In this document: piece by piece, positions 54,510 through 61,200 of the stretch
Layout: each line of letters opens with the position of its first letter
Position numbering within the stretch: the first letter of the stretch is position 1
Assembly: GCA_016873895.1 (NCBI GenBank)
Contig: VGVV01000002.1
Span: 100,188 to 164,187 of the forward strand
From: Ignavibacteria bacterium
GTDB taxonomy: Bacteria; Bacteroidota; Ignavibacteria; Kapaibacteriales; Kapaibacteriaceae
Length of the DNA stretch: 64,000 nt
Reading direction: 5' to 3'
Notes under the pieces: generated by a model
Told to the model about the DNA's origin: nothing
Database searches by the model: none
The model's input: the letters and a program-made list of their open reading frames with translations, nothing else
Program-made: the position numbers and the translations under genes

Positions 54510-56124
54510 CCTTGCTATACTGTTTGTTGTCGTGAATGTCGGTTCGCTGCTTGCACAAAGAGAAGAAAGTGACTTTCCGATCATCCGATCGATAAAAATC
54601 AAGCGCATTGAGATCTGGGATTCTACGCAAGGAGATTGGTTCTTTGCTGCAGACCTCATGAATGCCTTGCATGTGAAGACACGTGAATATGTGATTAACG
54701 ACGAACTACTCTTTGACATTGGTGATGAGCTCGATACAGTTGATCTGCTCGAGACAGAACGTGTTCTGCGTCGAATTGGGATCTTTAGTAACGTCCGCGT
54801 TGAGCACACTGTAGCCAACGGACAAGCAGATGTAAACATTACCACGCAAGACAGAGCGTCGTTGTCTCCAGCCGTCATTTTCTCTACAGGTGGCGGCATC
54901 TTCACATATGGAGGCCAAGTAGAGGAGTTTAATCTGCTCGGTACAGGTTCGATGCTCGCTCTTAAGGGGCTCTATAGAACAGAGAACGACATAGGCTTCG
55001 AGGGCACATTGGATGGTCAGTGGAGACGCGTTCTTCGCTCTTTGGTAGACGTCGGTGTATCTGTTCAGTCCAACAGATATCGCACACGACAAGAGATCTC
55101 GATCTCCCAGCCCTTTCGGTGGTTTACAACACCCTATGCATTCAACGTACAGACGCTGAATGAATACGGTAGCGATTTCAAATATTCAAATGAAGGTAAG
55201 AATGTAACCCTGTTACCATTCCACTCGCGAGAACTATTCGGCTGGATCTCACAATCCTATGGAGTGCGCGACCAGTTATATTCAAGTCTCAGCGTTCGGC
55301 TTTCTGATGTTTCACGCGTCCTTCCAACATCTGTGCAGGCATTCGACAACACTGGACATGTTCTCATTGGATTTTCTTCGATACGACAACAGTATTCACG
55401 TGCACAGTTCCTTAATGGCTATGAGACCGAAGACATCATGCAAGGGGCGTGGGGCAGCGCAACAATGGGACGCGTCTTTTCGATGGGTCAGGGAGCACCA
55501 TCAATGTGGTATCTCGGCGCCGAGGGTGAAGAATCTGCGCGGCTGTCGGACAACTTTTACCTGTTTGGTCGCATTGCTGCTGGATCGGGTTTTCAGACAG
55601 GTGCACGTGCAGTCAATACATACCTCGAGATTTATGGTACTACGCACTGGCGCGTAAATGAGAACTTTGTGATTGCTTCGCAGGTAAAGACCCAGTCGAT
55701 CTGGAATTGGACCGGATTTCGTCAGCTGGTTCTTGATTTGCAATCTGGTCTGCGCGGCTACGAAGCCAATTGGCTTGTGGGAGAGCGCCGTCTTGTTGGT
55801 AATACCGAACTGCGGTGGTTCCCCAAGATCAACCTGTGGATCTATGGCTTGAGTGCAGTGCTTTTCCACGATATCGGAACGGCATTTAATCAGTCGTCGA
55901 ATTACCTCAATGCACGCTACTACAACTCGGTAGGTGCCGGATTGCGCATCCACAATCTCAAGGTATCCGGTAAAGACGCTATCTATCGTTTTGATTTTGC
56001 ATACAACTGTACAACGCAAAAAATGGCAGGAATCATCTTTTCTGTGAGCCAACATTTTTCTGCATTCTCACAACATCGGTATCGTGCTCCGGATGTTTAC
56101 GGACGTGATATGGATAGGCAATAG
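54496..56124 (+). CDS. Omp85/BamA-TamA family outer-membrane beta-barrel protein (single POTRA)
   Basis: Signal peptide, a POTRA-like segment, and a beta-barrel ending in a C-terminal Phe (..HFSAF). Family assignment is by overall architecture. Confidence 0.5.
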   Translation: MKIVSLAILFVVVNVGSLLAQREESDFPIIRSIKIKRIEIWDSTQGDWFFAADLMNALHVKTREYVINDELLFDIGDELDTVDLLETERVLRRIGIFSNVRVEHTVANGQADVNITTQDRASLSPAVIFSTGGGIFTYGGQVEEFNLLGTGSMLALKGLYRTENDIGFEGTLDGQWRRVLRSLVDVGVSVQSNRYRTRQEISISQPFRWFTTPYAFNVQTLNEYGSDFKYSNEGKNVTLLPFHSRELFGWISQSYGVRDQLYSSLSVRLSDVSRVLPTSVQAFDNTGHVLIGFSSIRQQYSRAQFLNGYETEDIMQGAWGSATMGRVFSMGQGAPSMWYLGAEGEESARLSDNFYLFGRIAAGSGFQTGARAVNTYLEIYGTTHWRVNENFVIASQVKTQSIWNWTGFRQLVLDLQSGLRGYEANWLVGERRLVGNTELRWFPKINLWIYGLSAVLFHDIGTAFNQSSNYLNARYYNSVGAGLRIHNLKVSGKDAIYRFDFAYNCTTQKMAGIIFSVSQHFSAFSQHRYRAPDVYGRDMDRQ

Positions 56125-56132
56125 AGGACATC

Positions 56133-56798
56133 ATGAATATCGCTGCTACAATTGATCATACTGTGCTGAAACCAACATCAACTCTTGCTGATGTTGAGAC
56201 AATCTGCTCGGAGGCCATCACGCATAGATTCGCCAGCGTGTGTATTCTGCCATGGCACGTGGAGCGTGCGCATGAGCTCCTTGTTGCCAGCAGTATACCG
56301 GTCTGCACGGTGGTGGGATTCCCATTGGGAGCATCGACCACAGTGAGCAAGGTTGCAGAGAGCGAAATTGCACTTCGTCAGGGGGCTCGTGAAATCGATA
56401 TGGTAGCATCGATAACAGCTCTTAAAAGTGGTCTTTTTAGTGAGGTCTATGATGATGTTCGCGAGGTTACTCAGGCAGTGCATGGCCTTCATGGCATTGT
56501 TAAGGTTATCATCGAGACATGCTTGCTAACAGACGATGAAAAGAAGCATATGTGCGCTATCGTTACGCAAGCAGGGGCTGACTTTATCAAAACCTCGACG
56601 GGATTTTCTACCGGTGGTGCTACCCTTGATGATGTTCGCTTGATGAGAGCGCACGTAGGCCCTTCAGTAAAAGTGAAAGCCAGCGGCGGCATTCGAGACA
56701 GGGAAACAGCACTTGCAATGTTAGATGCTGGTGCAGAACGTCTGGGTACATCAAGCGGTGTTGTGATCGTGAGTGGTCTTGATGAACCCAAGCCATGA
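56133..56798 (+). CDS. deoC: Deoxyribose-phosphate aldolase
   Basis: Conserved Schiff-base lysine context (FIKTSTGF) and N-terminal IDHTVLKP. 221 aa. Confidence 0.9.
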   Translation: MNIAATIDHTVLKPTSTLADVETICSEAITHRFASVCILPWHVERAHELLVASSIPVCTVVGFPLGASTTVSKVAESEIALRQGAREIDMVASITALKSGLFSEVYDDVREVTQAVHGLHGIVKVIIETCLLTDDEKKHMCAIVTQAGADFIKTSTGFSTGGATLDDVRLMRAHVGPSVKVKASGGIRDRETALAMLDAGAERLGTSSGVVIVSGLDEPKP

Positions 56799-56814
56799 CT
56801 TCCTCATGCGTGCA

Positions 56815-56860
56815 ATGTGTCATAACACACATCGTTTTGGTATATTTGTGTTGCAACACA
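56815..56860. promoter_or_regulatory. Two adjacent palindromic operator-like sites upstream of the yceI-pirin pair
   Basis: ATGTGT-cataac-ACACAT (56815-56832; TGTGT-N6-ACACA) and the perfect 14-bp palindrome TGTGTTGCAACACA (56847-56860). Confidence 0.4.
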
Positions 56861-56886
56861 TACTATCACTTTGAAAAGAATAAGTT

Positions 56887-57411
56887 ATGGCCACGTGGAT
56901 TGCGGATCCAGCACATTAAGAGGTGCAGTTTAAAGTCAAGCACCTTATGATCAATACGGTTACAGGTGAGTTTACATCGTAGCGCGCCGAAGTAGTCTCC
57001 GATGCATCCGATTGGTCCGAGGCAACGTTTACCTTCGAAACGGATATCAACAGCATCAACACACGCATTGAAATGCGTGACGGCCACCTAAAGAGCGACG
57101 AATTTTTTGGTGCAGAGAACTTTCCTACAATGAACTTCGTATCAACACGGTTTGATTCCAAGGGAGATGGCGCATTTGAGTTAGGCGGCAACCTCACAAT
57201 TCGTGATGTAACGAAGGAAGTTGTACTCGATGTTGTGTATGGTGGTCAAATGGTGGACTTCTACGGAAATACCAAAGCTGGATTTGAAATCTCCGGTGCG
57301 ATCAATCGCAAAGAGTTTGGTCTAACATGGGATGCTGTTACTGAAGCTGGAGGTATTGTCGTATCCGACACAGTAAAACTTGCAATGAATCTTCAACTAC
57401 AGAAGCAGTAA
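56887..57411 (+). pseudogene. YceI-family protein gene with two in-frame nonsense codons (TAA at 56917-56919, TAG at 56977-56979)
   Basis: The single-frame translation reads MATWIADPAH*EVQFKVKHLMINTVTGEFTS*RAEVVSDASDW...RDGHLKSDEFFGAENFPTMNFVSTRF...GNLTIRDVTKEVVLDV. It follows YceI conservation (DPAHS, GxF..F.G) across both stops. Confidence 0.7.
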
Positions 57412-57413
57412 TC

Positions 57414-58274
57414 ATGTTTCGTTCGGTCCGCATCATCACATCGTCTCTTCTCACGGGTGTAGGCCCTTTGCGGGTTGCTCAGCCAATGCCTGTGCATGCA
57501 CTGCGTAATCTGGATCCATTTATCCTGTTGCATCATGCTGGACCACAACGATTCGATGCAAGTGGTGGTGTTCACAGGATTGATCCCCACCCACATCGCG
57601 GATTCGAACCAGTAACGTTTGTCTACCGAGGGAGTGTTCACCACAAGGACTCCCTCGGTAACAGCGGTATAATCCATGGCGGAGAAGTACAGTGGATTAC
57701 AGGCGGATCCGGTATCATTCATAGCGAAGGTCCAACCGAGGAGCTGCAACAATCAGGTGGAGAAATCGAACTTATTCAGCTGTGGGTTAATCTGCCTGCA
57801 AGCGATAAGATGTGTGTTCCTTCATATCAGGAGCTGCACAACTCTACGATTCCTGTAGTGCGTATCAATGATAATCAACTCACCTTGCGCGTGATATCCG
57901 GTGAGGTTATGTCGCACAAAGGCCCTGCCAAGACGCGTTCTTCCGTTACAACGGCTATGGGTTCGTTTACTTCAGAACTTGATGCAGAATTAGTCCTACC
58001 TGGTAACGAAACACTTGCCCTGTATGTGCTAAACGGCGCTCTCATTGTAAATGGAGAGCACAGGGTAGAGCGGCATCAACTTGTGGTGTTTAACAATGAT
58101 GGGACTAGAATACATCTAGCTTCTGAATCATCCGGCGATCTCTTGTTGTTGGGCGGAGAGCCCCTTCGCGAACCAATAGCGCAGTATGGTCCCTTTGTTA
58201 TGAACACCGATGACGAAATTCAGCAAGCTCTGGTTGATTACAGAGATGGAAAAATGGGAACGCTTGAGGACTAG
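57414..58274 (+). CDS. Pirin-family protein
   Basis: HPHRGFEPVTFVYRGSVHHKDSLGN...GGSGIIHSE cupin motifs. Starts 3 nt after the yceI pseudogene. Confidence 0.85.
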   Translation: MFRSVRIITSSLLTGVGPLRVAQPMPVHALRNLDPFILLHHAGPQRFDASGGVHRIDPHPHRGFEPVTFVYRGSVHHKDSLGNSGIIHGGEVQWITGGSGIIHSEGPTEELQQSGGEIELIQLWVNLPASDKMCVPSYQELHNSTIPVVRINDNQLTLRVISGEVMSHKGPAKTRSSVTTAMGSFTSELDAELVLPGNETLALYVLNGALIVNGEHRVERHQLVVFNNDGTRIHLASESSGDLLLLGGEPLREPIAQYGPFVMNTDDEIQQALVDYRDGKMGTLED

Positions 58275-61200
58275 CGTTTGATAAGCGGTTGATAAACCGT
58301 TCTGAACTTATCGCCGACACAAACAAAGTACAATCCAGATGGCACCGAGGACAGATCAATAGAGTTGCTGCCCTGCGCTACAGCGGTCTGCACAACATTG
58401 CCTATCCCATCAACCACGACCACCGTGTAACCATTCTTGAACATGTCTTTGCTGACATCTACTATTGCAACATCATCTGTTGGGTTCGGATAAACAACAA
58501 TCGGACGCGTCTGTCCAATACGCACAAGGCGTATAACACGACCCGTGCAAACATCACCGAGAAGAACCTCGCCGTCGCGGTAGACAACGTCGCACTGCTG
58601 ATTGATCCATGCAAATCCCGGCTGACGGTCGAACGTTAATGGTGTTGATGACGAAGTTGAGAGTAATGTTTGCATTGGAAGAATAGCGAGAGTATCACCA
58701 CCAAGCCACTCACCAGTGATGCTTATCGTCGTTAGCGAGTCGTGGCTGTCGCATTCCCATGCAGCGTAGCTGTTGGATCCTGTCTGCACTGCTAGATCTG
58801 ACGATTGAACATGTATCTGTACTGCGAACGAATCGAGTAATGATGAATCAATTGCCGGACGCCCATCCAGTAGCACCGGTACAAGCACCGTGGCACCAAT
58901 CTCTGATTCTATGCGAGGCATATAGAGCGTATTGGTTGCATATGCCTCGGACACCAACAAAACAACTTCGCGCTGTTTGCATGGGTTACTCGTGATGATT
59001 GCATACGAATCGATACTCATCCCGTACTGCTGGGTTAGCTGAATGTCGCAGGACAAGGTATCGCCCGGACCGAGTGAGCACGGAATTGTTGGTTCGGATG
59101 AAATGAGCACAAATGGTTTTGGTGAAAGGGGCTCCACAGTAAGCACATCGATTGGAATGTCCCCTCTATTCACGAAATAGGCAGTCCGTAGTTCCTTTCG
59201 GCCTATGATCGGTTCGGTGTAGCGAAGAGTATCTACGTGGGCAATACCAGCATCAATTGCCTTACCAACGAGAGTTAGGCGAATAGTAGTGTCGCACGGA
59301 GATAGTGTGATGCTGACCGTATATGCAAACTTGCCAAGAACTGTTGGGCTAATGCCTACACGAACGACTCTTGTTGCTCGCACCGAATCACCATTTTGCA
59401 GATCGAGAGAAACTTCAGCAGGCGCTGACACATCACTTACGAACCAGGTAGTTGAGTCAAGCGATGTGATCGGAACGTCTACAGTAATTGGTTGATTCTG
59501 GCAAAGCAACACATCAGGAACTTGCACCGTATCTGGTAGCTGTACGCGCGGCATGAATACCGGACCATCAATGTCTACCCACAACGTATCGTAGCAGCCT
59601 TCAAATTGGAGAACTAGTCCAACTCTGCCTTTAGATTTGCCCGGACTCGGCGACCATTGCAGGTTAATTGGGAAAACTGTTCCGTCTTGAACCGCAATTG
59701 GTAAGGCGGTTGTAGATGTGGCACTGCCGCTCGTGATAATATTCGTTAGTATACCGTCGCTCCCGCGCAGTACACACAGCACAGTTGTATCGCGCACCTC
59801 ACCCTTGCATGAGTAGAGAAGTGGCATGGTTATCGTCGAGGGAAACAGCGAATTGAGTCTGTTCTGTCTGTTCCAAACAATGGTAGATGTTATCGTCGAG
59901 TCACAAGGCGAGAGCGTTGTTGCAACAGTTACAAAATTCGGTCCGCTTGCTGCTCCTGTGGATACTCTTACGCGTATGCGGACCGAATCATTCTGGAGTA
60001 ATCTGGTCGGTAATGTGTCGAGCAACTGAACATTGGCAGAGGTAAAAGTAACTTTCGAAACGAATCCTGATACCGAACCTGCATTCACAACTGTGAAAGA
60101 AGTGTCGATGACCTTGTCGCAGAACACGTCTCCAAGGTCGAGCGGGCGTGCAAGCCCCTTCCATTGATCCAGAACGGTAACAGTTGCTGTATCGAGTGCA
60201 GAGCATCCAGTGGGGTCTGAGATTGCAACCACATATGATGTGGTTCGTGTGGGTTTAACATCGAGAACACTCGACCTGCTGAGAACCTTGCCGCCAAGTT
60301 CACTCCATTCAATACCTGCTACGGAACCTATGGTACGCAGTCTAAGTGTTGCTGATTGTCCGGGACAGATTGTTGTGTCCTGGAGAATTGTAACCTTGAG
60401 TATCGGTTTGGGTGTTGAATTCTCAGGAATAACTGCGCGAAAGGCTATCGATCCAGGCTCTCCAGGCTTAGCAAGGTGAGCCGCTACAACCGCATCTGTA
60501 AAGGCTGTGCAGCGCCCGGAAATGCCACCTTCAGCGGTAAACGTAACGCCCGAGGGCAGTGCAGTTCCTGATAACAATACACCACCACCACCGCCACCGC
60601 CACCAGGGCCATGAAGACCGCCAGAAGACATGTCTCCACCCTTGCCACCGTTTACGTTGATATTCAGGGGGCCTACCAGAAGTGCACTCGAAATCAAGAC
60701 ACATCCGCCGGCACCTGCTCCACCTGCGCCGTCGTTACCAGATGTCTGCGCATTGCCTCCAAGAGACTGGATTACGTTCTGGTTGCCGTAGATCGTATCA
60801 GCTTTGATGATGATAATACCGCCGCCATTGCCACCGGGAGTTCCGGTGTTGTTGTTCGTATGGCCAGCACCACCGCCGCCGCCAAAGCGCATGTATGGAA
60901 GCCCATTGAACTGAATTGCCAGGCTGGCACCACCGCGACCGCCGTTGTCGAAGGGGGCACCACACCCTTGCCATTGACTTCCGCCGTTGCCTCCACGTCC
61001 GCCATTACCACCACCACCACCGCCAGAGTTGTGCCCTACGCCACCGCCACCTGCGCTTAATAACTCTGCATTACCCGCAACATTGTCTACCCGAGGATAG
61101 ACAAACGTACCACCCTTCATCGCGGCATCAGGACTAGCGATGGTTGTATTGGCAATTGTTGTGGAGCATTGTCCGTTATTGCTGTTGCGGATGGCTCCGC

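Follow-up and report, generated by a model that had tools for sequence, protein, structure and literature searches.

A yceI gene with two nonsense codons upstream of pirin in freshwater Ignavibacteria is very probably a young pseudogene

Introduction

Proteins of the YceI family are β-barrels that bind lipids or polyisoprenoids. Solved structures of YceI-like (PF04264) proteins include those of Thermus thermophilus TT1927b (PDB 1WUB), E. coli YceI (1Y0G) and Helicobacter HP1286 (3HPE). Nonsense pseudogenes that segregate within a bacterial species are commonplace. Reassignment and suppression systems (alternative genetic codes, suppressor tRNAs, Sec/Pyl recoding) are the other natural comparison for the locus described here, in which TAA and TAG occur inside an otherwise conserved frame.

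The locus is a YceI-family gene directly upstream of a pirin gene, in a 64-kb stretch of DNA from an Ignavibacteria bacterium, which we refer to as the window. An original prediction from the letters of the window had offered three explanations for the two stops: a very recent pseudogene, a sequencing or assembly artefact, or a gene that depends on readthrough or suppression. We compared the locus with its orthologues and with nearly identical contigs in public assemblies, and weigh these explanations below together with a fourth, that a truncated product is still of use.

Results

The yceI frame of the window (Table 1) consists of 174 codons and a terminal TAA (57409-57411), contains two in-frame stops and is free of frameshifts. 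Its conceptual translation from 56887 onward reads MATWIADPAH, stop, EVQFKVKHLMINTVTGEFTS, stop, RAEV...LQKQ, stop. With both stops replaced by Ser and Tyr, the 174-residue protein matches the Pfam YceI profile (PF04264) over positions 1-149 of 150, with an E-value of 1.4e-44 and a score of 152.5 bits (cut-off, 23.7), and the same restored protein shows sequence similarity to TT1927b over residues 3-169 (E-value, 1e-30). The frame is collinear with that of an intact 174-residue relative, P0127, and aligns to it without gaps. Translation and Pfam match thus agree with the prediction of a single, unshifted frame for a full-length YceI-like protein. Of the two mutated positions that had been predicted, 56918 is exact, but 56978 is off by four bases, the true site being 56982.

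An AlphaFold model of the intact orthologue P0002, which at 174 residues has the same length as the window frame and aligns to it without gaps, is a predicted β-barrel with a mean pLDDT of 88.5. The model begins with five strands (residues 2-6, 12-19, 23-29, 32-38, and 47-53), followed by a helix (62-69) and five further strands (81-93, 96-105, 108-123, 129-140, and 158-173). In this model the TAA at codon 11 falls between strands 1 and 2, and the TAG at codon 32 falls at the start of strand 4. A whole YceI barrel requires an open frame throughout, and the frame of the window is closed at both of these codons. The remainder of the sequence is well preserved: 49 columns stay invariant when the window is added to an alignment of 48 intact homologues.

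Table 1. Features of the yceI-pirin region, in window coordinates.
Feature	Coordinates	Strand	Description
deoC-yceI spacer	56799..56886	+	presumed promoter/operator region; contains palindromes; putative function
Palindrome TGTGTCATAACACA	56816-56829		TGTGT-N4-ACACA form, upstream of yceI
TATATTTG motif	56841-56848		adjoins palindrome TGTGTTGCAACACA
Palindrome TGTGTTGCAACACA	56847-56860		TGTGT-N4-ACACA form, 31 bp from TGTGTCATAACACA
yceI pseudogene	56887..57411	+	full-length YceI-family frame with two premature stops (translation, Pfam)
First (older) nonsense codon, TAA, codon 11	56917..56919	+	from TCA (Ser), C>A at 56918
Second (younger) nonsense codon, TAG, codon 32	56980..56982	+	from TAT (Tyr), T>G at 56982
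Residual 112-aa ORF, Met63 start	57073..57411	+	longest remaining ORF; annotated by gene callers as a short 'YceI'
pirin, intact in window	57414..58274	+	Pfam Pirin + Pirin_C; starts 2 nt past the yceI stop

Fourteen orthologues with 61-79% identity to the window protein all have an intact yceI. Codon 11 encodes Ser in 13 of them (mostly TCN) and Thr in one (L012), and codon 32 encodes Tyr (TAY) in all but one, which has Phe (TTT). A scan of genome_contigs likewise returned other species only, at 79% identity or less, and the species of the window was absent among the representatives found. Closer relatives came from metagenomes. A protein search yielded P0001, a 154-residue protein with 98% identity to the YceI of the window, and no intact protein of more than 82% identity among the cluster representatives; the intact 174-residue P0127 was found inside the 90%-identity cluster of P0001.

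The contigs with these sequences can be assigned to three lineages. Lineage A is that of the window and includes L001/L082 and L083; lineage B consists of ten contigs that carry P0001, from JGI, ENA and Logan samples; and lineage C consists of two ENA contigs (L094 and L095) that carry P0127. Between lineage B and the window, 46 differences occur in 8465 aligned positions (approximately 0.5%). In lineage B, codon 11 is TAA but codon 32 is TAT (Tyr), which is why gene callers start its protein at Met21 and predict 154 residues. Lineage C has TCA (Ser) and TAT (Tyr) at the two codons and is approximately 97% identical to the window, from which it differs at 16 of 525 bases in yceI and at 17 of 666 in deoC. 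TAG at codon 32 was seen in the window lineage only; in lineages B and C, as in the orthologue L002, this codon is TAT. Since lineage B combines TAA with TAT and lineage C combines TCA with TAT, these alleles place the change of TCA to TAA first, in the common ancestor of A and B, and that of TAT to TAG later, in lineage A only. The Ser and Tyr expected at the two stops are therefore the residues that orthologues and the 97% identical relative actually carry, and each stop is, as had been supposed, one nucleotide away from the codon of that relative.

Both stops are reproduced in assemblies from Logan and JGI, and TAA also in ENA assemblies. Across 6.9 kb, L001/L082 (Logan, SRR7990527) shows no difference from the window, and L083, from a Lake Tanganyika metagenome (JGI 3300020603), has both stops and only two SNPs relative to the window in 3.3 kb. 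The exact pirin protein of the window, deposited as MBM4178236.1 ('MAG: pirin family protein [Ignavibacteria bacterium]'), is encoded on at least 23 contigs of public assemblies. The 112-residue protein predicted from the remnant of yceI and this pirin are each on record for 22 contigs, and the longest contig, of 917,806 bp, is the same for both; the broken yceI allele thus appears to travel with the pirin of the window lineage, as verified directly on a few contigs. A megablast search of 56100-58300 against plasmids gave no match. A DNA pattern scan of metagenome_contigs with the first stop left free (NNN) gave no matches either, and this result is uninformative about allele frequencies, because that collection evidently lacks the JGI contigs that carry the sequence.

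An error of sequencing or assembly, with TCA and TAT in the real genome, would be simple in that both changes are single-base substitutions. It would, however, have had to produce identical stops across different pipelines and samples, to place the same TAA in two lineages separated by 46 further differences over 8.5 kb, and to make TAG follow one lineage consistently; neither stop site lies within a homopolymer. We regard the chance of this as negligible, and in practice the artefact proposed in the original prediction is excluded. That prediction had also held that relatives sharing the stops would speak for a pseudogene, and TAA is indeed shared by two sublineages, each represented in independent assemblies.

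We then compared the changes in yceI with those in the adjacent deoC, polarising the yceI changes with lineage C and L002. On the stem of A and B, yceI acquired Ser11 to stop, D45E, I48F, A52T, N61I, and D72E; the branch of lineage A added Tyr32 to stop, V100G and one synonymous change; and the branch of lineage B added E72K and T87I. Asp72, which is invariant in the 48 intact homologues, has thus been replaced by Glu in the window and by Lys in lineage B. The broken clade has eight non-synonymous changes (ten with the stops) against about three synonymous ones in yceI, compared with five non-synonymous and 12 synonymous changes in deoC; for these small counts, Fisher's test gives p = 0.051, or p = 0.025 when the stops are included. 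Pairwise ω values, which are based on few substitutions, are 0.37 (A-C), 0.51 (B-C), and 0.86 (A-B) for yceI and 0.13, 0.11, and 0.32, respectively, for deoC. When only A and B are compared, the ratio of 4 to 1 in yceI does not differ significantly from that of 17 to 23 in the neighbouring genes (p = 0.17). Together these comparisons suggest relaxed constraint on yceI in the broken lineages, as supportive rather than decisive evidence. The good preservation of the remaining frame, Asp72 apart, is to be expected of a young pseudogene and also of a gene that is still in use.

The genetic code of the window is the standard one. Of the 49 non-overlapping long ORFs, 20 are terminated by TAA, 17 by TGA, and 12 by TAG, and the reassignment of a stop codon is therefore rejected, as it had been from the start. 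The only coding gap that stems from a broken gene is that at 56799-57072, with no other visibly broken gene in the 64 kb, and the only tRNA is a tRNA-Arg(TCT). From this stop usage, the single gap and the lone tRNA-Arg it follows that the lesion in yceI is isolated within the window and that genome-wide decay is not its setting. The window is otherwise densely coding and contains genes of Bacteroidota/Ignavibacteria type, including one for a 1154-residue protein with a type IX secretion sorting domain.

Could full-length functional YceI nevertheless still be made, with the stops decoded through a suppressor tRNA, by programmed readthrough or by local recoding? The intact downstream frame and the retention of nearly all conserved residues would fit such a mechanism, and an ochre suppressor encoded beyond the 64 kb covered by our tRNA search could in principle decode UAA as well as UAG. 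However, no suppressor tRNA was found within the window and an Rfam scan of 56500-57600 gave no match at E-values up to 1. All three stop codons terminate the long ORFs of the window, none of its other genes has an in-frame stop, and a single suppressor would place one and the same residue at the Ser and the Tyr site. No orthologue has the stops, nor has the 97% identical relative; they are thus new mutations rather than a conserved recoding site. Finally, the broken lineages show an excess of amino-acid replacements, including that of Asp72, and a second disabling change followed the first, which also argues against the readthrough suggested originally. We therefore consider decoding of the stops extremely unlikely.

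The genes upstream of pirin in the window encode, in order, a hypothetical protein of 542 residues, a deoC-like aldolase and YceI. More than ten related Ignavibacteria/Kapabacteria genomes have the same gene order with an intact yceI, and the yceI-pirin pair, which had been proposed from the window alone, is real and is kept in L002-L013 and L022. A literature search found no description of this pair as an operon. The ORF for the hypothetical protein (542-554 residues; 54460/54496-56124, plus strand) has no Pfam match and encodes a conserved protein without an assigned function, which is found in synteny with deoC-yceI-pirin, at 46-78% identity, in more than ten related genomes; in its longest form, it overlaps the end of a ptsI-like gene by 50 nt.

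The pirin gene of the window differs from that of lineage B by three synonymous changes and one non-synonymous change. Four contigs of lineage B (L085, L086, L089, and L091) have an extra A next to the position that corresponds to 57825/57826 of the window. The +1 insertion creates TCA-TAA and cuts pirin at 137 residues, with gene calls of 137 and of 105/153 residues. Judged from this frameshift, pirin too is becoming a pseudogene in part of lineage B. In addition, the stops in yceI may lower the expression of pirin, by a polar effect or by the loss of translational coupling.

The spacer between deoC and yceI contains two palindromes of the same form (Table 1). The core of TGTGTCATAACACA is invariant in the corresponding spacers of eight related Ignavibacteria/Kapabacteria loci, and the palindromes probably represent a putative operator for a regulator of the yceI-pirin pair. 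A sigma-70-like match at 56817-56846 is no better than expected by chance. Several orthologues have a GGAG motif before the ATG of yceI (equivalent to 56869-56886 of the window). At this site, the intact lineage C has GAAAGGAAT (L094, 827-844) and the broken lineages have GAAAAGAAT, a change that may reflect erosion of the ribosome-binding site. The spacer as a whole differs between lineage C and the broken lineages at 5 of 88 positions, which is near the synonymous rate, so that the change to GAAAAGAAT may equally mean nothing.

What remains of yceI could be translated from internal starts, at Met63 in the window (112 residues) and at Met21 in lineage B (154 residues). The 112-residue ORF (P0068) has been called as a gene on at least 22 contigs (45 index blocks of the collection). 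Compared with the P0002 model, it lacks all five N-terminal strands (residues 2-53), which lie upstream of Met63, and without these strands the remnant should be unable to close a lipid-binding barrel. Most likely, the predicted 112-residue product is non-functional. For dozens of public contigs, P0068 and P0001 have been deposited as short proteins with a YceI domain; we consider these entries to be annotation artefacts. Two minus-strand ORFs, at 56866-57087 and 56916-57197, are antisense to the conserved coding frame and were taken to be incidental.

A truncated product might still be useful, either as a protein or because its translation is coupled to that of pirin. Gene callers predict both ORFs, only 2 nt separate the stop of yceI from the ATG of pirin, and the pirin of the window lineage is intact, with three of its four differences from lineage B being synonymous. 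Against this, a 112-residue fragment without the strands at 2-53 is unlikely to fold independently, there is no Shine-Dalgarno-like motif ahead of the ATG at 57073, replacements have occurred within the remnant itself (E72K, T87I, and V100G), and pirin, the presumed beneficiary of any coupling, has been lost in part of lineage B. A useful truncated product is thus very improbable.

Discussion

We conclude, with a probability of roughly 90%, that yceI of the window is a genuine pseudogene of recent origin, which is polymorphic in a species-level group of uncultured freshwater Ignavibacteria, and that it yields no functional product. Of the explanations offered originally, the very recent pseudogene is the one that is upheld, by the shared TAA, the later TAG and the intact allele in a relative of approximately 97% identity. 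The history of the locus may be reconstructed as follows. The ancestor had an intact yceI of 174 codons directly upstream of pirin. A change of C to A then turned Ser11 (TCA) into TAA in the common ancestor of two sublineages, so that translation would end after 10 residues. From then on yceI is likely to have drifted, in neutral decay. The sublineage of the window gained the change of TAT to TAG at Tyr32, together with V100G, and its sister gained E72K and T87I, followed in some members by the +1 frameshift in pirin. Under this scheme no full-length YceI protein would be made, and its function would be lost.

Two variants of this history deserve mention, although we think both very unlikely: the stops may be suppressed in part, leaving some full-length YceI, or positive selection in the tropical-lake population may have favoured the loss first of yceI and then of pirin.

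The significance of the young yceI pseudogene lies chiefly in the annotation of short 'YceI' entries, in that the 112-residue P0068 and the 154-residue P0001 would be remnants of a pseudogene and not short variants of YceI. The locus also offers a view, through metagenomes, of what appears to be the stepwise decay of an operon, with a first stop, a second stop and then a frameshifted partner gene. A conserved yceI-pirin pair appears to be dispensable in this population, and the locus provides no evidence of unusual decoding.

Compared with the YceI family (PF04264), the frame of the window has everything that sequence can offer: a full-length match to the profile, similarity to 1WUB and an intact orthologue that is predicted to form a barrel. 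It differs from a working member in that it ends after 10 codons and meets a second stop at codon 32, and in that an Asp that is invariant in close homologues has been replaced. Lacking an open reading frame as well as this Asp, the window copy of yceI is very probably a dead member of the family. It also differs from the systems of reassignment and suppression: TAA and TAG terminate the surrounding genes normally, the two stops are lineage-specific new mutations, no suppressor tRNA was found in the window, and no recoding element in the yceI region. The closest likeness is to ordinary nonsense pseudogenes that segregate within a species. As in those, the disabling changes are single-base changes with an intact allele in relatives, further disabling changes have followed the first, constraint appears to be relaxed, and the operon partner is decaying in one sublineage. 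The case of yceI needs no new mechanism and differs from these pseudogenes only in that the order of events is unusually clean to read from public metagenomes.
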